The position numbers and the translations under genes were made by a program. Below the pieces are notes generated by a model. It was not told the DNA's origin and did no database searches. It saw nothing but the letters and a program-made list of their open reading frames with translations. A stretch of DNA of 64,000 nucleotides from the NCBI GenBank assembly GCA_964623775.1, contig CAZUVH010000003.1, positions 5,739 through 69,738 of the forward strand. The letters run 5' to 3'. How positions within the stretch are numbered: the stretch's first letter is position 1; each line of letters begins with the position of its first letter. Below, piece after piece: positions 4,643 to 19,004 of the stretch. This DNA comes from an uncultured Candidatus Saccharibacteria bacterium. Its GTDB lineage: Bacteria > Patescibacteriota > Minisyncoccia > Phycocordibacterales > UBA2100.

Positions 4643-4710
4643 TTCGATCTCCTATCGTTCCTGAGAGTTTTTTATCACTTTTTGAAGCTGGTCACAATGA
4701 GCAGGTCAAA

Positions 4711-4745
4711 TCAACTTGACATATCCATGGATCGAACTAGCATAG
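4711..4745 (+). promoter_or_regulatory. promoter/operator of the XRE regulator gene: ACTTGACAT-ATCCATGGAT, TTGACA -35 plus an inverted repeat
   Basis: TTGACA at 4716-4721; ATCCATGGAT is a perfect palindrome. A near-identical ACTTGACAT-CCATG sits upstream of the thioredoxin gene (5353-5372). Confidence 0.4.
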
Positions 4746-4753
4746 CAGTAACC

Positions 4754-4966
4754 ATGATTGAATATGTTAAAAACTCTCTTCTGTCGTATCGAACGAAAAG
4801 CGGTATCACTCAGGAAGAGCTTGCAGAGCGTGTCGGCGTCAGTCGGCAGACGATCATTGCTATTGAAAAGGGGAATTACACCCCCTCGGTACTTCTCGCG
4901 CTCAAGATTGCACGCTGTTTCCGCGTGCCGTTAGAAGATATATTTAAAATATCGCATGAACGTTAA
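4754..4966 (+). CDS. XRE-family (Cro/C1-type HTH) transcriptional regulator
   Basis: …SGITQEELAERVGVSRQTIIAIEKGNYTPSVLLALKIARCF… is a classic HTH_3 signature. Start chosen at MIEYV (4754); the longer ORF from 4682 would overlap its own promoter. Confidence 0.75.
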   Translation: MIEYVKNSLLSYRTKSGITQEELAERVGVSRQTIIAIEKGNYTPSVLLALKIARCFRVPLEDIFKISHER

Positions 4967-5321
4967 CGTTACATTTCAAGTGATCAGTGCGCTCGCGCTC
5001 GTCGTGCTCGCGGTGCTCTTGGTGAATCCTTTTGCAATCTGGATGCCGACGATGATGCACATGCTGGTGCTCGGCATCGCGGTTGTCGTTTTCGGGATAT
5101 TTTGTGTATTTGCGCTTGCCGAGCGGACGGAAGACGAACGAGGGGAGACGCACAAAGCGCGTGCGGGCCGTGCAGCATTCTTGGCGGGCGGATCTGTTCT
5201 CATCGTTGGAATTATTCTACAGACGTTTGCCCATGCGCTTGATCCATGGCTCGTCGGCGCGCTCGTCGGGATGGTTGTGGCAAAAGTATTCTCTCGGCTC
5301 TACGATCATTGGTACTGCTAA
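4956..5321 (+). CDS. small membrane protein (2-3 TM), typical companion of XRE regulators
   Basis: 121 aa; hydrophobic helices; starts 11 nt before the XRE stop, suggesting a translationally coupled pair. Confidence 0.45.
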   Translation: MNVNVTFQVISALALVVLAVLLVNPFAIWMPTMMHMLVLGIAVVVFGIFCVFALAERTEDERGETHKARAGRAAFLAGGSVLIVGIILQTFAHALDPWLVGALVGMVVAKVFSRLYDHWYC

Positions 5322-5350
5322 GCACTTCGGTATCCACAGACGATGTAAAG

Positions 5351-5390
5351 TAGACTTGACATCCATGTCAGGTCTTTTAAACTTGATTCA
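5351..5390 (+). promoter_or_regulatory. promoter of the thioredoxin/DipZ operon with the same ACTTGACAT-CCATG motif as the XRE promoter
   Basis: TTGACA at 5356-5361, followed by GACATCCATGTC (inverted repeat GACAT..ATGTC) and an A/T-rich -10 region. Confidence 0.4.
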
Positions 5391-5410
5391 TTAGTTTAAA
5401 AAATTTCACT

Positions 5411-6013
5411 ATGAATTTGATTGCAATGGTACTTGGTCTGGTCGTTCTCCTCGGAGGCGGTTACTTTGTCGCACAAAAAAGCGGCGTTCTCTCCGGCGAC
5501 ACGATGCAGAAAGAATCAACGATCGGCGGGGCGATAGAAGATGCGATGGCAGCAAAAGACGCGATGATGAAAAAAAATGAAGCGACCGAAGCCGCGATGA
5601 TGCAAAAGGACGAGGGGATGACAGCAGGTGACGCCATGATGAAGGATGAGACGATGATGCAAAAGGACGACACAATGATGAAAGGCGAGGAGGGTGCAAT
5701 GATGAAATCTGGCTCGTACGAAACGTATTCACCGGAAAAAATGGCGGCAGCAAAGGGCAGGGTGCTTCTCTACTTCCACGCGGATTGGTGCCCGATCTGC
5801 CGCGGAATCGAAGCGGATATTAAAGCAAATCTCGGAAAGATCCCTGGCGACGTCACGATCCTCAAGGTCAATTACGACGCCGCGACTGATTTGAGACAGA
5901 AGTACGGTGTTACGTACCAGCACACGTTTGTACAAATAAATTCTGATGGGTCTCTCGTCAAAAAGTGGGGCGACAGTACGAGTCTCTCGGGAGCATTGAC
6001 CAAGGTACAATAA
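5411..6013 (+). CDS. membrane-anchored thioredoxin-like protein with a Met-rich repeat linker
   Basis: N-terminal TM helix. Six or more MMxK(D/E)-type repeats (AMMKKNEA, AMMQKDEG, AMMKDETMMQKDDTMMKGEEGAMMK). Trx fold with WCPIC active site (…YFHADWCPICRG…). Confidence 0.75.
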   Translation: MNLIAMVLGLVVLLGGGYFVAQKSGVLSGDTMQKESTIGGAIEDAMAAKDAMMKKNEATEAAMMQKDEGMTAGDAMMKDETMMQKDDTMMKGEEGAMMKSGSYETYSPEKMAAAKGRVLLYFHADWCPICRGIEADIKANLGKIPGDVTILKVNYDAATDLRQKYGVTYQHTFVQINSDGSLVKKWGDSTSLSGALTKVQ

Positions 6014-6097
6014 GAGTATGCAACTCTTTTTGCGTCTTCGCTCGGACAAAATGAATGCGAGCTTTCATTTTGAATCCTCGCTAGCCACAATAATTTC

Positions 6098-7936
6098 ATG
6101 ATCTTACTCCTGATTTCCTTCATTGCGGGCGTGCTCTCCGTCCTTGCGCCGTGCGTCCTGCCGCTTTTGCCGGTGATCGTGGGGCAATCGGTTACAGGTG
6201 AGCGGAGTCCGCGTCGTGCGATCGTAATCGTGGTCTCGCTCGGCCTCTCGATCGTTCTCTTCACACTGCTCCTCAAGGCGAGCACTGTGTTCATCAATGT
6301 TCCACCGAGCTTTTGGCTCTGGTTTTCCGGCGGTATTTTGATCACTTTTGGTATCGTGATGATGTTTCCGCGTCTCTGGGATTCTCTTGGAATCGTCGCT
6401 CTCGTCAATCGTAGTTCGAATCAGCTGCTCGCGACGGGATATCAGAAAAATTCTTTCTGGGGAGATGTCATTATGGGTGCGGCGCTTGGGCCTGTCTTTT
6501 CGAGTTGTAGCCCGACGTACTTCGTCGTACTTGCGACTGTTCTTCCCGCGTCATTTGCGATGGGGTTGCTCGATCTGATCGCATACGCAATTGGTCTTTC
6601 CGGATTTCTTCTCATTATCGCGCTCCTCGGGCAGCGGCTTGTCGACAAACTTGGGGTAACCATCGAGCCAACTGGATGGTTCCGCCGAGCGATTGGCATA
6701 CTATTTGTCGCGGTAGGTGTCGCTATACTGACCGGATTTGAGAAAAAGGCGGAAATATGGCTCCTCGATCATGGATTCGATATCACAAAAATTGAGCAAC
6801 GGCTCCTGGAAGCAAATCCTCCGAGAAACGAATCGCAAATGTGTGCAGCCGGTTTTTGCCCCGGCCAGGTAAGTGTCACAGAGCTTGCTACTACGACCGA
6901 GGAGATCATTGCCCCCGGGAAAGCTGTTGCCGACGCGAAAATCGCAATACAGGTCACAAAGAAAGCGGCGATGTACGCAAAGGCACCTGAGCTCGTCATG
7001 CCAAACGCTTATATAAATACAGACGGGAAACCAATCACGATTGGCGAATTTCTCGGCAAGAAAGTCGTGCTCATTGATATCTGGACATACAGCTGCATCA
7101 ACTGCCAGCGCACGCTCCCGTATCTCAAGGCATGGCATCAAAAGTACAAAGACCAAGGTCTCGTCATTATCGGCGTACACACACCAGAATTTGCATTCGA
7201 AAAGGTGCAGAAGAACGTGCAGGATGCGGCGATGGGTTTTGGACTCACATATCCGATCGTGCTCGACAATGAGTACAAGACCTGGAACGCATTTGGTAAC
7301 AATTACTGGCCGCGCAAATATCTTATCGATATCGACGGCTATATCGTGTATGACCACGCGGGAGAAGGGCAGTATGAGGAGGCGGAGGAGGCGATTCAGG
7401 CGGCGCTCGCCGAGCGTGCGAAGCGCCTCGGGGCCACTGATATGGCTGATGTAGGCATTACCGCACCGAGCGACGCTGTGGCCGTGCAGTACGGATTGGT
7501 CGGAAGTCCTGAGACGTACTTCGGCGCATGGCGGAATGATAATTTTGGAAACGGTACGCCAGGTCAAATAGGAATCCAGACGCTCACGCTTCCGCAATCA
7601 CTCGCACCCAATGCCTTTTATCTTGATGGTACCTGGAGTTTTGAGCGGGAATATGTGCAAAACGTCACACAGTCGGCGAAACTGCATTTCCGATACCAGT
7701 CAAAAGACGTGTACTTTGTCGCGAGCGCCGACAAGCCGGTCAGAATCAAAGTCACACGCGACGGCGGAAAATCGCTCGGTGCCGCACGAGGCGCGGATGT
7801 CGATCAAAATGGCTACGCGACGATCAATGAGGATCGACTTTACAAATTGATCGAAGATTCCGCGTATGGCGCGCACACGCTCGAGATAGAGGTGGAAGGG
7901 CAGGGGCTCAAAGCCTATACATTTACCTTTGGCTAA
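6098..7936 (+). CDS. DipZ-like thiol:disulfide interchange protein (CcdA/DsbD transmembrane domain fused to a TlpA/redoxin domain)
   Basis: 612 aa. N-terminal CcdA-like 6-TM domain with …LAPCVLPLLP… and a second Cys region (…FSSCSPT…). Then thioredoxin-like …IDIWTYSCINCQRTLPYL…GVHTPEF… and a C-terminal beta-rich domain. Confidence 0.85.
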   Translation: MILLLISFIAGVLSVLAPCVLPLLPVIVGQSVTGERSPRRAIVIVVSLGLSIVLFTLLLKASTVFINVPPSFWLWFSGGILITFGIVMMFPRLWDSLGIVALVNRSSNQLLATGYQKNSFWGDVIMGAALGPVFSSCSPTYFVVLATVLPASFAMGLLDLIAYAIGLSGFLLIIALLGQRLVDKLGVTIEPTGWFRRAIGILFVAVGVAILTGFEKKAEIWLLDHGFDITKIEQRLLEANPPRNESQMCAAGFCPGQVSVTELATTTEEIIAPGKAVADAKIAIQVTKKAAMYAKAPELVMPNAYINTDGKPITIGEFLGKKVVLIDIWTYSCINCQRTLPYLKAWHQKYKDQGLVIIGVHTPEFAFEKVQKNVQDAAMGFGLTYPIVLDNEYKTWNAFGNNYWPRKYLIDIDGYIVYDHAGEGQYEEAEEAIQAALAERAKRLGATDMADVGITAPSDAVAVQYGLVGSPETYFGAWRNDNFGNGTPGQIGIQTLTLPQSLAPNAFYLDGTWSFEREYVQNVTQSAKLHFRYQSKDVYFVASADKPVRIKVTRDGGKSLGAARGADVDQNGYATINEDRLYKLIEDSAYGAHTLEIEVEGQGLKAYTFTFG

Positions 7937-7941
7937 CAAAA

Positions 7942-7966
7942 AGCCGCCCGAGGATACGGGCGGCTC
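7942..7966. terminator. bidirectional terminator hairpin agccgcccg-aggatac-gggcggct
   Basis: aaaa-AGCCGCCCGAGGATACGGGCGGCT-caatatattttaaaaa between convergent genes. Confidence 0.65.
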
Positions 7967-8023: not shown

Positions 8024-8725
8024 CTACGGTTTCGAAAATTGTGAAACCGGGTTTTCAAGCGGATTGAATGCCACATATCCGATCACTGAATCACCCTCGA
8101 CCTTGAGTCGCTTGAGCACATGATGTCCCACGTTGAGGTCGCCACCGTGCTCGCCGAGCCAGGCGATGAATTCCCGGGCGAGAAGTTTGTGCACTTCTTT
8201 GCCCTCCTCGGTCGGCGGAATATTCAGCGACCCATCGAGGAGCTTGCGACCCTCTTTTGCAAACTCCTCGTCCTTAATGAGAACGAAAGACGGCAGCTTT
8301 GAGCTGCTGGCTGAATATGTCCGCAAAATGACGTACCGGAGGATGGAATCACCGTGCAGCGCCCTGATCTTGCCCAGATTCTTCGGGGACTGGACAGCAA
8401 TGCCGTACGCGTTGAGAGCTTCCTTGAGCTTGGCCACATATGCGGCCGACGGCTTGAAGCCGAGCGTGATCGGATTCTTGCGATCATTGTACGCCCGGTA
8501 GTGCAGCTCGAATTTCTCACGACATGTCGCGCAGGACCGCAGGTGATCGACTTTCGCAAGGAATTTTTCGTCGAATGCGGATTCATCCAGGCAGTTCATC
8601 GTTCTCTCGCCTGGAATCTGCTCTGGCAGCAGTCCGAGCTCCGCAGCGCGGTTTTCCATCGCGCGCTTTTCTTCTAGTGCGCGCATGGTCTGCGCGTCAG
8701 TCTTCGCTTTCCTTCGTCTGCTCAC
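8024..8725 (-). CDS. hypothetical protein (possible Cys-containing regulator)
   Basis: 233 aa; …HLRSCATCREKF… could be a small metal-binding motif; no clear family. Confidence 0.4.
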   Translation of the reverse strand: MSRRRKAKTDAQTMRALEEKRAMENRAAELGLLPEQIPGERTMNCLDESAFDEKFLAKVDHLRSCATCREKFELHYRAYNDRKNPITLGFKPSAAYVAKLKEALNAYGIAVQSPKNLGKIRALHGDSILRYVILRTYSASSSKLPSFVLIKDEEFAKEGRKLLDGSLNIPPTEEGKEVHKLLAREFIAWLGEHGGDLNVGHHVLKRLKVEGDSVIGYVAFNPLENPVSQFSKP

Positions 8726-8901
8726 AGTGGTCTCCTTTGAATGATCTGCGGTAAATAAACACGAATATCGGAAGAGTGCAATGTCTTTACTCTATATAAA
8801 AAATGTTGTCAAACGCGTATTTGGGTGGAAGAAAGATTAAAAAATTGCTAAATTGCGGCACTTTAGCTTTCATTAGTAATTCATTAATTTTTTGGGGTCC
8901 T

Positions 8902-11900
8902 ATGGATATATCTGTACCTAGAAGCGTTTCTCTTATTTTTAACAAATTGGCTGCAGGCACCGTTGTGCTCGCAATGGTCGTCAGCATGTTCCCAGCCGGT
9001 CTCACCGGTTTTAATTTTGCGTCGGCGGACGACAGTGGTTTTCTTTCACCCACGGTCAAGGATGTGAATCATGACGAATGGAGTAATGCAGACCGTGCAT
9101 TCAGTAGCAACAATAATTACTCAACGGAAACCGACGAGGATGATGACCAGAGCTTTGAAAGTTTCGGTTTCTCGGTGCCATCAGCATCGACAATCAATGG
9201 AGTCGAGGTGAGCATCGAGGGCTTCACTGCTGACCCTTCCGGTTGTCAGGCTGAGGTGCGAATGTGGTCAGACAGCGATAATGAGCATTCTGACTACCGC
9301 ACGCAGTCTGTCACGGACACTGAGGGGACGTATGTCCTCGGCGGGTCATCTGACTTGTGGGGTTCTACATGGATACCATCAGACTTCAGCAACGCGGACT
9401 TCCACGTGGAAATTCGATTTGATGATGTAGGAAGTGGTACCTGTGATGACATAGATGTTGAAAATGGTGGCATCGACATCAACCACAGCGGCAGTGTCAG
9501 CAGTTCTGATGATGGCTCCCTGGGCGGGAAGACCATAATTGACGGACGAGTTGATTGGGATAACAACGGTGTCGTAAATGGCAGCGATGATTCCTCTGCA
9601 AATGCGTTCCTTGGCAAAACGATCATCGATGGATGGGTAGACTTCAATGGCAGTGGAACGATTAGTGGTAGTGGAAGCAGTGACGACGGCGAGCTTGTGA
9701 ATAACACGTTCTCGCTCGATCACATCCAAGTGAAAGTCCATTACACTCCAGATGCATGCAATGATGTGTTCACGTACGAAAAGGAGAGCGACTACAGCGA
9801 TGCTCGCGTGGCCATCGACTTCCATGGCTTTGGTGGTAATGAAATTGACGTGTCGGCGCAAACTGGTTACGAAATTCAGGAAGTTTGGCTGGATGTCGAA
9901 GGTGATGGCGAATCAGGTTACTACCTCTATGCAACGGGCCCCGTAGACGACTTCAATCCACCAGGTGGCGAGATTGACGAAGCAAAAATCATAGTCAAAA
10001 AGACCTGCAACGGTGTATTGGAGGTGAAGAAAGTAATTGTCGGCGGTCATGATGGAGATGACGCAGAAGACTTCTCCTTCACGGTTGCGACAAATGACAG
10101 CGTTACGGTCCCGCAGAGTTTCGAAGCGGACGGCCAGAATGATCTCTCACTCGCTCCTGACACCTACACTGTCACAGAAACCGCAGCGGCGGGATGGGTC
10201 ACTACATACGAAAATTGCTCCGACGTTTCTCTCGCACTTGGTGAGACAGAGACCTGTACCATAACCAACACAAGACTCGGCTCGATCACAATTGTGAAGG
10301 AGACGGTGCCCGGCGAAGTAGATCAAGACTTCGTCTTCACGACGAGCGAAGGTCTCGCGGAGGGGAATCAGTTCACCCTCAATACATCCGAGGAAAGCCA
10401 GGTTACATTCAGCGGACTCGAGGCCGGTGAGTATTCGATTACGGAAACGGAAGTTCCCGGCTATGTTCTCACGAATGTGAGCTGTGTAGCAGATGGTGCG
10501 GAATACATTGTTGAAGACAATATGGTATCGATCGGTCTCAGTAACACCACTGATGTAGTGTGTACTTTCACCAATAAGCGACTTCCGATGCTGACGGTCT
10601 ACAAATATGCTTCTCCGCTCGACACGTCCTTCGACATTACGGTAGAGAATACTACGCTCGCGACGAGCAGCATCTTTACAGCTGATGTCGCAGGTGATGG
10701 TGAGGCAAACAGCGGTAATACGTATCATTACGTTGCGCTTGGCGACTACACTCTCACAGAAACACTTCCTGAGGGCTGGGGTGCAAATGGTACAGGCGGT
10801 GTCTCGAGCTCTGTCTGCTACAAGAATGGTGATGCGTCGGATATGGACGACACATCGATCAGCACATCTCTCGCGTATGGCGACGTAGTCAACTGTATCT
10901 TCAACAACACCCCGAATTCAATCCTTGCCGGAGACAAATTCGAGGATATGGATGGTAAGGGCGAAAGCACGGAAGGGGATGGTCTCAGCGGATGGACCAT
11001 TAGACTCTTTGAGTGGGATGGTGACAGTTGGGATTTTGAGGACGACACAACGACGGATGCAGGAGGCATGTTCAACTTCGGCAACATTCAGCCTGGCAAA
11101 TACCTCCTTTGCGAACAAGAACAGAGCAGTTGGTACCAATCAGTACCGTCTGACAGCACCACCCCGCCCGCAGGCGCTGTGGTCACGAGCTGCATCAATG
11201 ACGTGACTTGGGGTTCGGCCAAGGGTTACAGAATCGAAATCGTTGATGTGCCGGTCGCAACCACGACGGCAACTGTCGACGATCAGGAGGTGGTGATTGC
11301 AGAGCCGCTCGAGGGTGACGACGAATTTCCGGGCCAGGTATTCGATGGCTTCCGTTTTGGTAACTACCAGAAAGGATCCATCGGTGGCATAAAGTGGAAC
11401 GACGAAGACTCGAACGGTGTTCTCTGCACGGAGGAGATGGATGCAAATGATGAATGCACAGAAGAACAGGCTCCAGACAACAAGTGGTACATCGCTTACT
11501 CGGGTCCTTACAACAATGGCGGTGAATGGACCTCTGCAGGCACCTTCTCGTTCACCAATCTCGAGCCGGGCACATACACCTTGAGCGAATCCATGCAATC
11601 AGGGTGGGCACAGACGTACCCATACCTTTCGACGGGAAATCAGACGCATACCGTGGTCGTGCAATCAGGCGATCACAAGGTTCGCAATTTCGGCAACGTC
11701 GGTGACTCAACCATTTCAGGTGAGAAATGGAATGATGTCGACGGAGATGGGGTGAAAGACGAAGGCGAAACTACACCGGGCACTTCGTTCACATTCGAGC
11801 TGTACAAGATAGTCGGTGAGACATCAACACTGGTCACTACGCAGAGTGATAACGACGGATACACTTTCAGTGGCCTGCTCTCGGGTACCTACATGGTATG

Positions 11901-13299
11901 TGAGGTTGAAACTTCCGGCTGGGAACAGACATACCCCGCAGATGATGGTTGCCATACGGTGACCGTGGGTATTGATCAAGACTCGACCGACAATGACTTC
12001 GGCAACATTGAGGTGGTCGACATCTCTGGTATGAAGTACCACGACAAGAACAGAAACGGCGTCAAAGATGAAGGTGAGTTCGGCCTCTCGGGCTGGACCA
12101 TCACGGCGACTCCGATCGTAGATTCGTGCAACGACGGATGCTGGGAGGAGGACACAGACAATATGAAGACGACAACGACAGATAGTGACGGCAACTACGT
12201 CTTCCATATCAAAAACAGCGAGACAGGAACGTGGCGAATTGCGGAAGTAAATCAATCCGCATGGACACAGACCGCGCCCACAGATCCGAGCTACTACGAC
12301 ACTCAGGTCTCGATCGGTGATCCATCCACAGGAAATAACTTCGGCAATTGGAAGTGGCCGGTCATACAGGTATACAAGTGGACCGATCTCAACTCGAACG
12401 GCACTCAAGACGAGGGTGAGGGGCCAGTCGCTGGTTACCCGATCGCAGTTGGCCAGATCACAGGCAGTGAAGGAGGTGAGGAAGGCGCCGACGCTCTCAA
12501 TGTGGAAATTATCACCACTGAGCTCACCGGCTCCGATGGCTTTGCTAATATCGCTCTCAATCCCGCTTGGTTCGAGGACGGCCTCACGCAAAGTGAGTTG
12601 AACAATCTCGTTGTGTTTGAGGGTCAGCAGAGCAATTGGACGAAGACCTTCCCGAATTTCACGCACAATGACACGATCAATATCACCTGGCGCGACGGCC
12701 TCATTCCAATCACACTTCTCACAGACTCATTCTTCGATGTCTTCACAGAGGGCATATTCTCTGGCGGCGGCACTGCAACAGCAGGTCTTCAACACGACAC
12801 GTACTCACCTGAGACTTCACTCAAGTTTGGCAACCACTACACCGAGCCGGTGACGGAGACGCCGTCGACCCCGACGAATGGCGGTGGTGGGGGTGGCGGC
12901 AACGGCCCGATCGCGGGATCTCTCCCGGCTGGTCAGGTACTTGGCGCATTCGCAAGTTCGAATGGCCAAGTGCTCGGTGAATCTGCGTGCAGTGCAGTAC
13001 TCCTCACCGACTTCATGCGCCGCGGCAAGAAGAATGATCCAGAACAGGTGAAGCTCCTGCAGGAATTCCTCAACAAGGAAATGGGCCTCAACCTCCCAGT
13101 TACAGGCTTCTTTGGACCGTTGACCGAGAATGCGGTCAAGAGCTTCCAGATCAAGTACGCGGCTGACATCCTGACGCCATGGAATCTGTCGGAACCGACC
13201 GGATTCGTGTACCTCACGACGCTCCGCAAGATCAATCAGATCCACTGCGAAGCGCTCAATATCCCGATGCCTGAGCTCGTTCCATTCAGTGGCGAGTAA
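8902..13299 (+). CDS. giant secreted cell-surface protein with about five Cna-B / SdrD-B-like (prealbumin-fold) repeats and a C-terminal peptidoglycan-binding (PG_binding_1-like) domain
   Basis: Signal peptide MDISVPRSVSLIFNKLAAGTVVLAMVVSMFPAGLTGFNFASA|DD. Repeated (K/E)(F/W/Y)xDxDG/NxNGxxDxGE…G(W/F)T…(Y/W)xQTxP units (e.g. ISGEKWNDVDGDGVKDEGE…SGWEQTYPA). Poly-Gly linker GGGGGGG, then …VKLLQEFLNKEMGLNLPVTGFFGPLTENAVKSFQ… Start set at 8902; the ORF extends to 8803 without a signal-like sequence. Confidence 0.75.
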   Translation: MDISVPRSVSLIFNKLAAGTVVLAMVVSMFPAGLTGFNFASADDSGFLSPTVKDVNHDEWSNADRAFSSNNNYSTETDEDDDQSFESFGFSVPSASTINGVEVSIEGFTADPSGCQAEVRMWSDSDNEHSDYRTQSVTDTEGTYVLGGSSDLWGSTWIPSDFSNADFHVEIRFDDVGSGTCDDIDVENGGIDINHSGSVSSSDDGSLGGKTIIDGRVDWDNNGVVNGSDDSSANAFLGKTIIDGWVDFNGSGTISGSGSSDDGELVNNTFSLDHIQVKVHYTPDACNDVFTYEKESDYSDARVAIDFHGFGGNEIDVSAQTGYEIQEVWLDVEGDGESGYYLYATGPVDDFNPPGGEIDEAKIIVKKTCNGVLEVKKVIVGGHDGDDAEDFSFTVATNDSVTVPQSFEADGQNDLSLAPDTYTVTETAAAGWVTTYENCSDVSLALGETETCTITNTRLGSITIVKETVPGEVDQDFVFTTSEGLAEGNQFTLNTSEESQVTFSGLEAGEYSITETEVPGYVLTNVSCVADGAEYIVEDNMVSIGLSNTTDVVCTFTNKRLPMLTVYKYASPLDTSFDITVENTTLATSSIFTADVAGDGEANSGNTYHYVALGDYTLTETLPEGWGANGTGGVSSSVCYKNGDASDMDDTSISTSLAYGDVVNCIFNNTPNSILAGDKFEDMDGKGESTEGDGLSGWTIRLFEWDGDSWDFEDDTTTDAGGMFNFGNIQPGKYLLCEQEQSSWYQSVPSDSTTPPAGAVVTSCINDVTWGSAKGYRIEIVDVPVATTTATVDDQEVVIAEPLEGDDEFPGQVFDGFRFGNYQKGSIGGIKWNDEDSNGVLCTEEMDANDECTEEQAPDNKWYIAYSGPYNNGGEWTSAGTFSFTNLEPGTYTLSESMQSGWAQTYPYLSTGNQTHTVVVQSGDHKVRNFGNVGDSTISGEKWNDVDGDGVKDEGETTPGTSFTFELYKIVGETSTLVTTQSDNDGYTFSGLLSGTYMVCEVETSGWEQTYPADDGCHTVTVGIDQDSTDNDFGNIEVVDISGMKYHDKNRNGVKDEGEFGLSGWTITATPIVDSCNDGCWEEDTDNMKTTTTDSDGNYVFHIKNSETGTWRIAEVNQSAWTQTAPTDPSYYDTQVSIGDPSTGNNFGNWKWPVIQVYKWTDLNSNGTQDEGEGPVAGYPIAVGQITGSEGGEEGADALNVEIITTELTGSDGFANIALNPAWFEDGLTQSELNNLVVFEGQQSNWTKTFPNFTHNDTINITWRDGLIPITLLTDSFFDVFTEGIFSGGGTATAGLQHDTYSPETSLKFGNHYTEPVTETPSTPTNGGGGGGGNGPIAGSLPAGQVLGAFASSNGQVLGESACSAVLLTDFMRRGKKNDPEQVKLLQEFLNKEMGLNLPVTGFFGPLTENAVKSFQIKYAADILTPWNLSEPTGFVYLTTLRKINQIHCEALNIPMPELVPFSGE
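10925..12700 (+). repeat. about five tandem ~330-bp coding repeats (Cna-B/SdrD-B-like modules) inside the surface-protein gene
   Basis: Protein-level periodicity beginning DKFEDMDG…, GSIGGIKWNDEDSNG…, ISGEKWNDVDGDG…, ISGMKYHDKNRNG…, IQVYKWTDLNSNG…. Confidence 0.6.
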
Positions 13300-13874: not shown

Positions 13875-14876
13875 ATGAGTCGGAAGAGGGGCTTTTTTAG
13901 CAGCAAGAAAGTGAAGAGGGAATTCGAGCTGCTCGGGGGCGTATCGGCGACAGCGGCCTCGCTTCTCGTCGTTTCCATTTTTCTTCTCACGTCGCTCGAC
14001 AAGATCCTCATTACCTCCAATCAGTACGCATCCGTCATTGCGGCGGTCTTGGTAGATCTCACAAATGGCGATCGTAATGCGAGCAACATCCACGGTCTCA
14101 CGATCAATCCCGTACTCGTCGCGGTCGCGCAGGCCAAGGCGGATGACATGGCTGCAAAAGGCTATTTCTCGCACGTGTCGCCCGAGGGCAAAGACCCATG
14201 GCATTGGTTTAAGCTCGTCGGTTACAAATTCACGTACGCGGGAGAGAATCTCGCCGTTGACTTTTCGGACTCTGCTGATGTGCAGCGAGCATGGATGAAT
14301 TCGCCGACGCATCGCAAGAATCTGCTCGATCCGCGCTTTACCGAAATAGGGATCGCGACAGCTGCTGGCTTCTATCAGGGCCACCCCACCATCTTTGTCG
14401 TCCAGGCATTCGGCGCCCCTGCAGCATCAGCAAGCGAGCCAACCGTCGCATCCAATGTACCGGACGATCCGGGCACGCTTGCCGTGGCAGAAGTAATGCC
14501 CACGGCGCCCACACAAGTCTTGGGCGAAACAACCGACTCTAATGTGGTAAAGCCGACGATGGAAGTGCGACCAATTACAGCTGGGGAGGTGGTAGTTGTG
14601 CCCCAGCACTCGGCTTGGTACGACCGCCTCGCGTCCTCACCGCGCAATTTCGTGTACATCACATACTATGTCATCGCGGCGCTCATCATCCTCTCGCTCT
14701 TGATCGAGACGGGTCTCCAGATACGCCTGCATCATGAGAAAAAGGCAGTTACGGCGGGCCTCATGCTCGCGCTCGTCCTCGGTTTTGTCTTCGTGACCAA
14801 TGTGTACCTCTTCCCGCACCCTGTACTTGTCTCCGAAAACGCGGTGCAGATGGCAGCTGCTGCAGCCGCGCTCTAG
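13875..14876 (+). CDS. CAP (SCP/PR-1, YkwD-like) domain protein with an N-terminal TM anchor and a C-terminal membrane segment
   Basis: …GYFSHVSPEGKDPWHWF…AGENLAVDFSDSADVQRAWMNSPTHRKNLLDPRFTEIGIA… matches CAP-domain signatures. Confidence 0.75.
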   Translation: MSRKRGFFSSKKVKREFELLGGVSATAASLLVVSIFLLTSLDKILITSNQYASVIAAVLVDLTNGDRNASNIHGLTINPVLVAVAQAKADDMAAKGYFSHVSPEGKDPWHWFKLVGYKFTYAGENLAVDFSDSADVQRAWMNSPTHRKNLLDPRFTEIGIATAAGFYQGHPTIFVVQAFGAPAASASEPTVASNVPDDPGTLAVAEVMPTAPTQVLGETTDSNVVKPTMEVRPITAGEVVVVPQHSAWYDRLASSPRNFVYITYYVIAALIILSLLIETGLQIRLHHEKKAVTAGLMLALVLGFVFVTNVYLFPHPVLVSENAVQMAAAAAAL

Positions 14877-15687: not shown

Positions 15688-17352
15688 ATGACAGTATTTA
15701 AGAAAATGACCGCTGGAGTATTGGCGGCAGGCATTATGGTGCCGTCTCTCGCTTTTGCGCAGACGTCGACAAGTTCGACCCTCACGGCGCTTTTGGCGCA
15801 GATCAAAGCCTTAACGGCCCAGATTGAGGCTCTCAAACAGCAGCAGTCGACGTTGCAGGGCCAAATCAAGACGGTAAAAGAAGATGCGCGCGCGGCAGTG
15901 AAAGAACTTCGTGGCCAGATAAGGTGCGGAGCGAGCGGCGAAGATGTCGCGCTTCTCCAAACGATCCTCGCATCTGATCCGTCGATCTTCCCGGAAGGCA
16001 TAATCAATGGCTTCTACGGCAAAAAGACGAGCGAGGCAGTTAAGCGCTTCCAGCGCATGACCGGTCTCACGCCGACAGGCTGCGTCGGTCCGCAGACCAT
16101 GAACGCACTCAACAACTTCCTGAAGAAGCACCCGATCATAGTGCAAGACGGCACCGTCTGTGCGCTTGTATTGAATGGCGAAAAGCCGAAAGGCTGGGAG
16201 CGCAAGCTTGATCGTGAACGCGAGAAAATGGGTATGAGCTCCATCCCGACGTGCACGGGCGGCATTCCTCAGTCGATTCTCAATGCTTTCGGTATCAGTT
16301 CGACGACACCGTTTGTCCCGGGCAATACCGGTGTGACACAAGATGAAACGATTCCGGGAAGCGGCAAGATCACGATGTGCCACAAGCCAGGTCACAACAA
16401 AGTGACGATCTATGTCAGCTCGTCTGCTTTTGGCGCGCATATCGCGCATGGTGATCGCCTTGGTGCGTGCGATGGCAGTACTGCCACGACCACGACCGAC
16501 ACTATCGCGCCGACGATCAGTGGCGTGAGCTCGACCAACGTCACAACTACAGGTGTTACCGTTACCTGGACGACCAACGAGGCTGCCACCACGCAGGTTG
16601 AGTATGGCACTACGGCTTCGTACGGTTCGACGACTTCGCTCGATAGTACGAAGGTTACGAATCACAGCGCGGCGATCTCCGGACTCTCAAATGGTACGAC
16701 CTATCACTTCCGCGTGATTTCGAAAGACGCGGCAGGGAATACGGCAACTTCTGGCGATATGACATTCACGACAGGTACGGTCGACACGACCGCCCCGTCG
16801 CTCTCAGCGATCACATCGACCAACCTGACAATGACCGGCGCCACAATCACGTGGACGACCAATGAGAACTCAACGAGTCAGGTGGAATACGGCACGACGG
16901 CTTCGTATGGAAATACGACCACCCTCGACACTGCGCTCGTAACAGGGCACAGCGTCAACCTTACCGGCCTCACGACCGGTACCACATACCACTTCCGCGT
17001 CATTTCGAAAGACGCTGCGAACAATGTGGCGACCTCCGGCGACATGACGTTTGTGACGACAGCCGACACCACCGCGCCAGTTATCTCCGGCGTCTCGGTC
17101 TCGCCGATCAGTGCAAGCAGCGCGTCGATCTCGTGGACGACCAATGAATCAGCTACGACCAAGGTGTACTACGACACCGTAGCCATCACGTCTGGTTCGC
17201 AGTTTGCGGTTGCCGCAGGCGCAGGCACGTCGCACATGGTTGGTCTCACCGGCCTCAGTGCGTCGACGACGTACTACTATGTCCTCGAATCGAAAGACGA
17301 TCAGAACAACACCGCGACGACGACCCAGTCGAGCTTCGCGACGACCAACTAA
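15688..17352 (+). CDS. secreted protein: coiled-coil region, peptidoglycan-binding (PG_binding_1-like) domain, then three FN3-like repeats
   Basis: Signal peptide …PSLAFA|QT. …GASGEDVALLQTILAS…NGFYGKKTSEAVKRFQRMTGLTPTGCVGPQTMNAL… is PGBD-like. Three ~90-aa repeats TTAPxISxxSSTNxTxTGxTxTWTTNExxTxQVEYGTTASYG…TTYHFRVISKDAAxNxATSGDMTFxT. Confidence 0.7.
   Translation: MTVFKKMTAGVLAAGIMVPSLAFAQTSTSSTLTALLAQIKALTAQIEALKQQQSTLQGQIKTVKEDARAAVKELRGQIRCGASGEDVALLQTILASDPSIFPEGIINGFYGKKTSEAVKRFQRMTGLTPTGCVGPQTMNALNNFLKKHPIIVQDGTVCALVLNGEKPKGWERKLDREREKMGMSSIPTCTGGIPQSILNAFGISSTTPFVPGNTGVTQDETIPGSGKITMCHKPGHNKVTIYVSSSAFGAHIAHGDRLGACDGSTATTTTDTIAPTISGVSSTNVTTTGVTVTWTTNEAATTQVEYGTTASYGSTTSLDSTKVTNHSAAISGLSNGTTYHFRVISKDAAGNTATSGDMTFTTGTVDTTAPSLSAITSTNLTMTGATITWTTNENSTSQVEYGTTASYGNTTTLDTALVTGHSVNLTGLTTGTTYHFRVISKDAANNVATSGDMTFVTTADTTAPVISGVSVSPISASSASISWTTNESATTKVYYDTVAITSGSQFAVAAGAGTSHMVGLTGLSASTTYYYVLESKDDQNNTATTTQSSFATTN
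16496..17340 (+). repeat. three tandem ~280-bp DNA repeats encoding FN3-like modules
   Basis: Near-identical stretches (e.g. ggcacgacggcttcgtatgg…accacataccacttccgcgtcatttcgaaagacgc) recur with a period of about 280 bp. Confidence 0.7.
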
Positions 17353-17382
17353 CCTACAGAGTGATCACTGGAGGCTTATGCA

Positions 17383-17408
17383 AACACCCCGGCACATGCC
17401 GGGGTGTT
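17383..17408 (+). terminator. terminator hairpin aacaccccggc-acat-gccggggtgtt plus TTTT
   Basis: Perfect 11-bp stem directly after the 15688..17352 stop. Confidence 0.7.
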
Positions 17409-17429
17409 TTGCTGATATATAATGACGAT

Positions 17430-19004
17430 ATGAAAAATATTACCCACGTTCTGTTCGTGTTGTTTGTGTTTGCGATATTTTCCCTCCCCGCATCAGCGTA
17501 TGCAGTGTCTGCATCGATCCAAGAAATTTCTCCCGGGACGAGCGTACTGCCGAAAAATAAATTTACGTTCAAAATCGTTCCGTCTGGATTTATGGCGCAA
17601 TCGTACCAACTAACGGATTCGTTCCCCGGGACGACACTTACGGTCAACAACATCGACCAAGCTGGCCGCTTATTCTGGGTACCGCTCCCGAGTGATGTGG
17701 GGACGCACAATCTCACTATCACGGCGCAAGATTTCAACGGCAATAGCGCGATTGTCACACAGACCGTTACGATCTTGCCACCCCCCTCCGTCTCTATTCA
17801 GTCGGTTTCGCCTGACCTCAAAATCATGCCTGGTACGACGCTTACATTCCAAGTTGTTGCGACCGGTTTTACGAACCCGAGATTCACGGTGAGCGATTCT
17901 GTGAGCGGCTCGGGTATTGCCAATGTTACGATCGGCTCATCAGGCGCATTCTCATGGACGCCCGCTCCCGCTGACGACGGGGAGCACAGGATAACTGTCT
18001 ACGCCAATGATTCAAGCGGCAGCAGTGCTTCTGCAAGCATCGATGTCGTAGTCGGCACCGGTCCGAGCATTGTGATCAATGGGATGTCGCCGGGCCCTTC
18101 AGTGACGCTCGGTCAAACGCTCACGTTTACGGCATCGCCGGTGCAATTTTCTCCGAATGCATTTTCAGTGACTGACACATTTTCAGGGACAACTGTTTCC
18201 AACGGCAACATCAATATCTCGGGTCAGTTTTCCTGGACTCCGTCAGGGATCGACGCGGGGACGCATACGCTTACAGTGACGGGGACGGTCGGGTTCTATG
18301 GCAAAAGTGCATCGGTGAAACAGGTGGTACATGTCCTTCGGCCCGGCGAGACGGCGCCAATACAGACTGTTGCTGCCACAAGCACTGCGCCCACAACAGC
18401 AATTGCCGCAAGCGATACTGCCGTGACCGCTCTTCAAAAACAGATTGCCGAACTCACTGCAAAAATCGCCGCTCAAAAAGGCGCATCTGTCTCCACCCCC
18501 GCGGCGACACCCGCACCCGTATCTGCAAACGGCTCATTCACGACCTACCTCTATCAAGGTATGGAGGGGGAAGAGGTGACTCGGTTGCAGAAAGTGCTGG
18601 CGCAGCAGGGCTTTTTCAGCGCAGAACCAAATGGCACCTTTGGACCGCTCACGGTGGCCGCGGTGAAGAAATTCCAGGCAGCGCAGGGTCTCAGCACGCT
18701 TGGGGTCGTGGGTCCGGCCACTCGCGCAGCGCTCAATGCACTCTCGAATTCTTCGGCGACACCGAAGGGTGTTGAAAATTCTGCCAGCAAATATGTATTT
18801 GAAAAGTTCCTCTCACGGGGCGATGAGAATACGGATGTTACGGAGCTTCAGAAGCGCCTCAAGGCACTTGGCTTTTTCACGGGCGAAGCATCGGGGTACT
18901 TTGGTCCAGCCACCTACGCGGCAGTCATAAAATTCCAGGTGGCAAATGGTCTTGACCCGAAAGGACATGTAGGGCCTGGCACGCGCGCTGCGCTCAATAA
19001 GTAA
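17430..19004 (+). CDS. secreted protein with three Ig-like repeats and two C-terminal peptidoglycan-binding (PG_binding_1-like) domains
   Basis: Signal peptide MKNITHVLFVLFVFAIFSLPASAYA. Three ~95-aa repeats (…FSWTPxxxDxGxHxLTVTA/G…). Two PGBD-like segments (…VTRLQKVLAQQGFFSAEPNGTFGPLTVAAVKKFQAAQGL… and …VTELQKRLKALGFFTGEASGYFGPATYAAVIKFQVANGL…). Confidence 0.7.
   Translation: MKNITHVLFVLFVFAIFSLPASAYAVSASIQEISPGTSVLPKNKFTFKIVPSGFMAQSYQLTDSFPGTTLTVNNIDQAGRLFWVPLPSDVGTHNLTITAQDFNGNSAIVTQTVTILPPPSVSIQSVSPDLKIMPGTTLTFQVVATGFTNPRFTVSDSVSGSGIANVTIGSSGAFSWTPAPADDGEHRITVYANDSSGSSASASIDVVVGTGPSIVINGMSPGPSVTLGQTLTFTASPVQFSPNAFSVTDTFSGTTVSNGNINISGQFSWTPSGIDAGTHTLTVTGTVGFYGKSASVKQVVHVLRPGETAPIQTVAATSTAPTTAIAASDTAVTALQKQIAELTAKIAAQKGASVSTPAATPAPVSANGSFTTYLYQGMEGEEVTRLQKVLAQQGFFSAEPNGTFGPLTVAAVKKFQAAQGLSTLGVVGPATRAALNALSNSSATPKGVENSASKYVFEKFLSRGDENTDVTELQKRLKALGFFTGEASGYFGPATYAAVIKFQVANGLDPKGHVGPGTRAALNK

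Follow-up and report, generated by a model that had tools for sequence, protein, structure and literature searches.

A methionine-rich tethered thioredoxin without cis-proline and its DipZ-type partner in a regulated gene cassette of Patescibacteria

Few defences against oxidative stress have been recognised in the Patescibacteria, which are tiny and mostly anaerobic episymbionts. In the 64,000-nucleotide stretch of DNA analysed here, hereafter the window (contig CAZUVH010000003.1 of assembly GCA_964623775.1, from an uncultured Candidatus Saccharibacteria bacterium), two adjacent open reading frames (ORFs) raise the question of what a membrane-anchored thioredoxin with a methionine-rich linker (ORF1) does beside a DipZ-type fusion of a CcdA membrane domain to a TlpA-like redoxin (ORF2). 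A first-pass annotation had taken the pair for an envelope reducing system specialised for copper or for oxidative stress, and its general idea of an envelope reducing system tied to oxidative stress proves right. On balance we lean towards the view that the cassette containing both genes is an extracytoplasmic methionine-oxidation defence, that is, a pathway of the CcdA-Etrx-Msr type with a built-in sacrificial sink resembling the methionine-rich peptide MrpX.

What is new is a thioredoxin that lacks cis-proline and has an MrpX-like tether, encoded together with a DipZ fusion and its own regulator; this combination is widespread mainly in Patescibacteria. A literature search for methionine-rich thioredoxins in Patescibacteria, or for DipZ in connection with methionine sulfoxide, found nothing relevant. 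The cassette joins two ideas so far described apart, the sacrificial methionine-rich peptide and the CcdA-Etrx-Msr pathway. If our reading holds, an oxidant sponge at the cell surface together with its electron supply would be one of the main recognisable protections of Patescibacteria, present in at least several hundred species.

A methionine-rich tether and a thioredoxin with histidine in place of cis-proline

ORF1 (positions 5411-6013 of the window, forward strand) encodes 200 residues, whose layout was read from the ORF listing, Pfam and a structure model; genes called independently on a public Logan contig of 3.8 kb include both ORF1 and ORF2 as identical proteins. A hydrophobic N-terminal membrane anchor (residues ~2-21, 5414-5473), which AlphaFold2 models as a helix at residues 2-15, is followed by a disordered linker of methionine, lysine, aspartate and glutamate (residues ~22-100, 5474-5710) and by a thioredoxin fold (residues 101-200, 5711-6010) with the active-site motif WCPIC (residues 126-130, 5786-5800), all on the forward strand. 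Pfam Thioredoxin (PF00085) matches with E=4.4e-11, the best Foldseek matches are thioredoxins with a TM(target) of ~0.7, and the WCxxC motif of classical thioredoxins thus sits on the expected fold. The predicted local distance difference test score (pLDDT) of the model exceeds 93 in the thioredoxin fold and falls below 50 in the linker, where no secondary structure is predicted; a rigid stalk consisting of a single alpha-helix is therefore unsupported.

The arrangement described in the first-pass annotation, a membrane anchor, a WCPIC thioredoxin and at least six MM repeats between them, was borne out by the ORF listing and Pfam. Between residues 23 and 99, 15 of the 77 residues are methionine (19%) and 26 are lysine, aspartate or glutamate (34%), and the methionines form six MM dipeptides (AMMKK, AMMQK, AMMKD, TMMQK, TMMKG and AMMKS). 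Against a background of 2.5% methionine, the binomial probability of at least 15 methionines in 77 residues is 7.6e-10, and because methionine has a single codon this richness is not an effect of base composition. Tandem Repeats Finder detected no tandem repeat in the DNA over positions 5300-6100. A recent tandem expansion by slippage is thus rejected, and the repeat is instead a degenerate pattern at the protein level.

The linker is a family trait. A search of 5.8 billion proteins returned 1047 homologues of ORF1 at E<=1e-5, HMMER, run exhaustively with just the thioredoxin domain as query, returned 2424 cluster representatives at E<1e-10, and a scan of one genome per species places the gene, here called the Met-thioredoxin gene, in at least 597 species. 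Homologues with source names and the titles of related genomes lead to the Patescibacteria (Kaiser-, Zambryski-, Nomura-, Taylor- and Yonath-bacteria, among others), with the family found mainly in the Paceibacteria. The linkers of 211 single-domain homologues range from 0 to 236 residues (median 74) and contain 18% methionine, 38% lysine, aspartate and glutamate, and a median of four MM dipeptides. Histidine makes up 0.4% of the family's linkers, cysteine is almost nil, and MxM, MxxM and His-Met motifs are lacking. Methionines peak at ~9-10 in any 40 residues across the family and at 11 in ORF1; among 1,021 other ORFs from the 80 related loci of our context survey, in which domains were located by tblastn and all flanking ORFs were clustered, the commonest peak is 2. 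The methionine-rich linker is confined to the Met-thioredoxin, and other anchored proteins of the related loci, anchored methionine sulfoxide reductases (Msr) included, have ordinary linkers. The first-pass annotation had wondered whether the repeat is conserved or length-variable in relatives, or whether it is a recent expansion missing from orthologues: the repeat is kept in kind while varying in length across more than 1000 proteins, and the latter idea falls. The same annotation called the repeat module unusual, which is true in comparison with textbook thioredoxins and untrue within this large patescibacterial family, where the module is the norm.

A different function can be proposed for the same linker. 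ORF1 and ORF2 could constitute a general extracytoplasmic disulfide reductase pair, resembling CcdA-ResA or DsbD with DsbC/G, for the folding or de-sulfenylation of surface proteins, the methionine-rich segment being a flexible spacer that reaches through the wall and its composition being incidental. The disorder and highly variable length of the linker favour this alternative, as do the many large wall-associated surface proteins encoded in the region of the window and a homologue (P0117) with a peptidoglycan-binding domain inserted inside its methionine-rich linker. An incidental composition is, however, hard to square with methionine content, encoded by one codon, being held at 15-19% although the thioredoxin domains are just 40-60% identical, with several linker methionine columns that are at least 90% conserved in the homologue alignment, and with the serine-, glutamate-, threonine-, proline- and glutamine-rich spacers that other anchored proteins of these loci have. 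We regard the disulfide reductase pair as rather improbable.

Returning to the proposed methionine-oxidation defence, the thioredoxin domain at the end of the tether is itself atypical. Hidden Markov model alignments to solved thioredoxins place His171 (5921-5923, forward strand) at the cis-proline, with VTYQHTFV in ORF1 against VTAMPTFV, and ORF1 thus lacks the cis-proline loop of the classical thioredoxin family PF00085. Q-H-T is present in all 120 of the closest homologues, and across 285 domain instances the position is occupied by histidine (252), serine (14), threonine (13) or aspartate (5), and never by proline. The polar Q-H-T...Q residues of this loop (Gln170, His171, Thr172 and Gln175) are invariant in alignment A1. 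Judging from the aligned cis-proline of solved thioredoxins, His171 would lie adjacent to the CxxC motif. ORF1 is probably a specialised thioredoxin, one by fold and active site that is without one defining feature of the classical proteins, and the histidine may adapt it to Msr substrates in the sulfenate or disulfide state. With its many natural thioredoxins that have histidine for cis-proline, the family also offers a ready system in which to ask what this residue controls.

The best structural match of ORF1 is Edwardsiella Trxlp/TRX3 (5zf2; also 5zpv), which likewise has a WCPxC motif and has lost the cis-proline, its Q-S-T aligning with the Q-H-T of ORF1. Trxlp is described as a secreted virulence effector (PMC6636751); it differs from ORF1 in having serine at this position, and neither a methionine-rich tether nor a CcdA partner has been reported for it.

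Several family members elaborate on the basic plan. DUF6799 is inserted inside the methionine-rich linker of P0076, and the linker inserts among P0117, P0076, P0060, P0174 and the protein at L055:5527-6444 include a beta-domain of ~110 residues with an AHIHEG/SHIHTG motif, which has no Pfam match and is possibly CHRD- or SOD-like. Two or three cis-proline-less thioredoxin domains occur in tandem in P0007, P0008, P0025, P0033 and P0122-P0127; the two-domain versions that were read begin with a lipoprotein-type signal, and methionine-rich segments join their domains.

The DipZ-type partner and the four-gene cassette

ORF2 (6098-7936, forward strand) encodes 612 residues in three parts. Pfam DsbD_TM identifies the CcdA membrane domain (residues 3-211, 6104-6730) with a score of 27.1 bits, exactly the Pfam gathering cut-off, and this domain contains C19 (6152-6154) and C137 (6506-6508), one cysteine in either half. 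The TlpA-like redoxin (Pfam Redoxin, residues 300-427, 6995-7378) matches with E=2.4e-14, and with 2.7e-17 for the ResA subfamily; it has a CxxC motif (C333/C336, 7094-7105) and, at P405 (7310-7312), a cis-proline. A cysteine-free beta-domain (PF17991, Thioredoxin_10; residues 470-612, 7505-7933) matches over the full model length with E=1.9e-36. All 41 aligned DipZ-type relatives keep C19, C137, C333-x-x-C336 and W404-P405 unchanged. The extracytoplasmic part aligns with the Mycobacterium tuberculosis DipZ structures 2hyx/5cyy over ~265 residues (E=5.7e-57). The CcdA cysteines, the TlpA/ResA-like redoxin and the PF17991 domain with its similarity to DipZ were thus all found, and they confirm the DipZ architecture, a CcdA/DsbD domain with a TlpA-like redoxin and an extra beta-domain, named in the first-pass annotation.

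ORF2 shares with M. tuberculosis DipZ (Rv2874) not just the three-part architecture but also the YSCINCQR active site and the motif GVHTPEFAFEK. It differs from the mycobacterial gene in its fixed place beside the gene for a methionine-rich thioredoxin, and some relatives have a CcdA-MsrA-MsrB fusion in its stead. We know of no physiological substrate for DipZ. Its relatives SOQ1 and NHLRC2, which matter in plants and in human disease, are the next closest to ORF2 in the Protein Data Bank (7djj, E=5.7e-23, and 6gc1, E=1.1e-19). They share with ORF2 a TlpA-like domain of the (S/C)CINC type, and for them, too, a CcdA feed and a link to methionine sulfoxide reduction are proposed. Msr activity has been reported for the lumenal part of SOQ1 and requires a cysteine pair in the C-terminal domain, which receives the electrons (preprint, bioRxiv 10.1101/2024.11.01.621559). 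ORF2 differs in having no NHL domain and no cysteine in its C-terminal PF17991 domain, the region that carries the activity in SOQ1, and a mechanism of the SOQ1 type therefore cannot apply. A second cysteine pair of ORF2, C249/C254 in the sequence CAAGFC of the linker between CcdA and redoxin (6842-6859), is kept in 2 of 41 relatives; because it is not conserved, it is probably no redox relay, and this candidate was rejected.

Across the 80 related loci the two genes belong to a cassette of four, in the order XRE-family helix-turn-helix (HTH) regulator, TM121, Met-thioredoxin and CcdA fusion, all on one strand. The HTH and TM121 genes precede the Met-thioredoxin gene in 70 of these loci, and a CcdA gene follows it directly in 77, with a gap of 84 bp in the window. 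The cassette is self-contained: no further gene family occurs in more than 8 of the 80 loci, and conservation ends with the four genes. In the window the HTH gene (4754-4966, forward strand; 70 residues in the Logan gene call; Pfam HTH_3, E=1.6e-16) ends within the TM121 gene (4956-5321, forward strand), and the 11-nucleotide overlap of stop and start makes the two genes translationally coupled. TM121 is a protein of 121 residues with four predicted transmembrane helices (alignment A2) and the conserved motifs NPFxFWMPxMM, DER...H/R...AGR and H..DPW, the first and last of which face outward. It has no confident match in Pfam or NCBIfam. We presume that it partners the HTH protein as a sensor, and what it senses at the membrane may be oxidation.

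A palindrome between the TM121 and Met-thioredoxin genes marks a putative operator. In the window it reads ATGTAAAG-TAGA-CTTGACAT (5343-5362, forward strand), matches ATGTMAAG-N4-CTTKACAT with no mismatch and shares bases with the -35 box of the promoter-like site 5356-5383. A second, operator-like palindrome with two mismatches (4703-4722, forward strand) likewise overlaps a -35 box, that of the promoter-like site 4716-4743 in front of the HTH gene. The window has only these two matches to the pattern, both within the cassette. About 60 of 70 related loci have the palindrome ATGTAAAG-N4-CTTTACAT between the same two genes, and Kaiserbacteria-like loci have the variant ATGTCAAG-N4-CTTGACAT. 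The HTH protein, with its four-helix partner, would set expression of the cassette through this operator and its overlap with the -35 box, presumably as a repressor. A GC-rich hairpin of 9-10 pairs directly 3' of the DipZ stop codon (7942-7966) is likely a bidirectional terminator that closes the operon. The regulator pair with its operator went unmentioned in the first-pass annotation, which was also silent on the replacement of cis-proline by histidine and on the lack of msr genes in the window.

With its own regulator and operator, the cassette looks like a stress response system and not like one for housekeeping folding, which again speaks against a general disulfide reductase pair. So does the lack of cytochrome c maturation genes: no ResB/CcsA-like gene is present among the conserved neighbours of the 80 loci, and a cytochrome c maturation context was rejected. 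Six loci (L009:1735-2268 and five others) encode, a few kb or less from the cassette, a homologue of DsbB of the disulfide-forming pathway, which counts in favour of the reductase pair.

Association with methionine sulfoxide reductases

The proposed defence against methionine oxidation draws its genetic evidence from the related loci, 30 of which have msr genes in or beside the cassette. The CcdA gene is of the DipZ type, as in the window, in 60 of the 80 loci, and in 12 others its position is taken by a CcdA-MsrA-MsrB fusion of ~600 residues (L032:6533-8332, L036:6545-8353 and ten further loci; MsrA motif GCFWC), recognised by Pfam PMSR (E~1e-56) and SelR (E~1e-41), with E from 1e-41 to 1e-58 overall. 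The Met-thioredoxin is in these 12 loci the sole thioredoxin-fold protein at hand to pass electrons from the CcdA to the Msr domains. The alternation of DipZ with MsrA-MsrB at one position of the locus hints at what DipZ does. Among the DipZ-type loci, 14 have msrB or msrA directly after DipZ, and nine small msr ORFs, of which eight encode MsrB of 162-184 residues and one MsrAB, have a membrane anchor at the N-terminus. At L021:1841-3771 the HTH-TM121 pair and the cassette palindrome precede a gene for a membrane-anchored MsrA-MsrB, 2.5 kb from the thioredoxin-CcdA pair of that genome, which suggests a shared regulon. The MsrB domain of six inspected fusions has a single cysteine, and is thus of the 1-Cys type without the zinc-site cysteines.

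The composition of the tether leads in the same direction. MrpX of Azospira is an exported peptide with 20% methionine and 44% charged residues that is induced and oxidised by hypochlorous acid (HOCl) and recycled by the periplasmic Msr YedY/MsrP (PMC4436054), and BcrX of Brucella, an 'MXKDX repeat protein' to which the same description applies, is encoded in the HOCl-induced bcrXQP operon (PMC8315932). The ORF1 tether resembles both in being an exported, disordered segment with ~20% methionine and ~40% lysine, aspartate and glutamate, and in being genetically linked both to the reduction of methionine sulfoxide and to a dedicated regulator, which responds to oxidants in the case of MrpX and BcrX. 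Because the composition matches these sacrificial hypochlorite sinks, we read the cassette as a methionine-oxidation defence. The differences are equally plain. The segment here is a tether between anchor and thioredoxin, whereas MrpX and BcrX are small free periplasmic peptides encoded with msrPQ (yedYZ); its repeat is ~7-8 residues long with MM dipeptides, not MXKDX; and the linked reductases are thiol-based MsrA/B, with a proposed CcdA feed, instead of the molybdoenzyme MsrP fed by MsrQ. No MsrP/Q was identified among the conserved neighbours, in which no specific search for MsrP/Q was made. JGI annotates one ORF1 homologue as 'pentapeptide MXKDX repeat protein', and the close homologue P0009 matches the penta_MxKDx model TIGR02953 with E=4.7e-7 and 29.7 bits, under the 41-bit cut-off. 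The frequency of msr genes in related loci, the 12 fusions and the likeness of the linker to MrpX and BcrX together support the oxidative-stress branch of the first-pass annotation, with its Msr-type substrates.

We propose that ORF1 and ORF2 would form the output half of the regulated cassette and guard the cell surface from oxidation of methionines and thiols. The CcdA domain of ORF2 (Cys19/Cys137) would convey electrons from cytoplasmic thioredoxin across the membrane to reduce, on the outer side, both the TlpA-like domain fused to CcdA (C333/C336) and the anchored ORF1 thioredoxin (C127/C130). These two modules would in turn re-reduce Msr enzymes at the surface, and perhaps further surface proteins that have been oxidised; in this genome the Msr enzymes would be encoded elsewhere, if at all, and in many relatives they lie within the cassette. 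The ORF1 tether of ~80 residues would act as a sacrificial sink in which HOCl, H2O2 and chloramines are spent on forming methionine sulfoxide beside the membrane, and Msr enzymes would regenerate it with electrons from the thioredoxin at the tether's own end.

Such a pathway has close precedents. In Streptococcus pneumoniae, CcdA1-Etrx1-MsrAB2 and CcdA2-Etrx2 reduce methionine sulfoxide at the surface, and the ccdA2-etrx2 operon lacks msr (PMC3914529), as does the window; in Fusobacterium nucleatum the Trx-CcdA-MsrAB-ModRS locus carries its own regulators (PMC9239216). As in these systems, ccdA adjoins a gene for an anchored extracytoplasmic protein with a thioredoxin fold, two thioredoxin modules serve one system, msrAB is in the operon in some versions and absent from others, and dedicated regulators belong to the locus. 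ORF1 differs from Etrx in having the minimal classical fold (PF00085) and not that of a TlpA/ResA-like lipoprotein, in lacking cis-proline, and in its methionine-rich tether. CcdA is here fused to a redoxin (DipZ) or to MsrA-MsrB, unlike the CcdA of the Etrx systems, and the regulator is an XRE-HTH protein with a four-helix membrane protein instead of a two-component system. The Trx-MsrA-MsrB fusion PilB of Neisseria, which is reduced by DsbD according to its citation in PMC3914529, follows the same logic, an extracytoplasmic coupling of a DsbD/CcdA conduit to a thioredoxin fold and MsrA/B; the arrangement in relatives of the window differs, with CcdA fused to MsrA-MsrB and the thioredoxin encoded by a separate gene.

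Several observations weigh against a methionine-oxidation defence. A motif scan and a tblastn domain search found neither msrA nor msrB in the window, and for this genome the link to Msr therefore rests on association in relatives. Fifty of the 80 related loci have no msr gene within ~6 kb, a count that also favours the disulfide reductase pair. Several of the msr genes adjacent to the cassette have no membrane anchor and look cytoplasmic, and these may share the cassette's regulation without taking its electrons. ORF1 is without the cis-proline that normal disulfide reductases use, and Trxlp, its solved relative without cis-proline, reduces insulin much more weakly than classical thioredoxins (PMC6636751). 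ORF1 itself does not match TIGR02953 at E<=10, similarity between low-complexity segments proves neither homology nor shared function, and a minority of distant Met-thioredoxin family members have linkers that are not rich in methionine.

The invariant Q-H-T...Q residues at the cis-proline loop invite another explanation, in which the ORF1 thioredoxin domain is itself a methionine sulfoxide reductase of thioredoxin fold acting on its own tether and on nearby proteins. Cys127 would attack the sulfoxide, His171 with Gln170, Thr172 and Gln175 would bind and protonate its oxygen, Cys130 would resolve the sulfenate, and CcdA would recycle the disulfide. The domain always comes with a methionine-rich, substrate-like segment in cis and with CcdA as its neighbour, whereas just 30 of the 80 loci have msr genes; SOQ1, moreover, sets a precedent for Msr activity in a non-Msr fold fed by a DipZ-like thioredoxin domain (bioRxiv 10.1101/2024.11.01.621559). 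The argument is otherwise one of chemical plausibility, and the 12 loci with CcdA-MsrA-MsrB fusions need a thioredoxin as conventional Msr reductant. To our knowledge no thioredoxin reduces sulfoxides, and we consider this activity a long shot. The wider proposal that the cis-proline-less, histidine-bearing domain is a new catalyst, a reductase of sulfoxide or of sulfenate that repairs the tether and its neighbours with CcdA electrons, is in our estimation improbable. Were it correct, the exchange of DipZ for MsrA-MsrB would imply that a DipZ/SOQ1/NHLRC2-type domain also takes part in methionine sulfoxide repair.

Copper-related genes and the neighbourhood of the cassette

Methionine-rich segments are classical Cu(I) ligands, and the remaining alternative is that the cassette handles copper. 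The tether would capture Cu(I), the CxxC motif with the neighbouring histidine would form a site resembling that of Sco or of a copper chaperone, and DipZ would keep this site reduced, much as TlpA does for ScoI. Cis-proline reportedly prevents metal binding by thioredoxin thiolates, and its replacement by histidine in the close homologues and in most domain instances described above would remove this barrier. A P-type ATPase gene lies near the cassette in 3 of the 80 loci, two of these proteins being CopA-like with a CopZ-type CxxC motif, and a DUF305 gene is present in two. The two DUF305 proteins (L010:9288-9695 and L063:7476-7883) have a methionine-rich N-terminal stretch (HMMPNGQMMGNGGSMSMSDMM), and their genes lie ~0.5 kb downstream of an anchored MsrB adjacent to the cassette.

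Copper-related genes nevertheless occur in at most 5 of the 80 loci, against 30 with msr, and motif scans of the window found none for Sco, CopA, CopZ, multicopper oxidase or cupredoxin. ORF1 has CPIC and thioredoxins as its structural neighbours, where a Sco protein or copper chaperone would show CxxxC with a distal histidine, a Sco-type fold and a cop/cox context. The linker, with its 0.4% histidine, almost no cysteine and none of the MxM, MxxM or His-Met motifs, resembles in composition the oxidant sink MrpX. Fermentative organisms of this kind also rarely have cuproenzymes to load. We hold a role in copper handling to be very unlikely, and the copper or Sco specialisation suggested in the first-pass annotation finds no support in the motifs of the window, in the gene content of the related loci or in the CxxC spacing.

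Downstream of the four-gene cassette, the window contains a run of genes for wall-associated surface proteins (8803-13299, 13875-14876 and 15688-19004). They include a protein of 1498 residues, in which SpaA/SdrD repeats accompany a peptidoglycan-binding domain, as well as a CAP-domain protein and two further PG_binding proteins that have fn3/Ig domains. Between this run and the cassette, an ORF of 233 residues on the reverse strand (8024-8725) converges with ORF2 and has no Pfam or NCBIfam match. Upstream, also on the reverse strand, lies the gene for a FAD-linked oxidase (486-2132), and the same family is found near the cassette in eight related loci.

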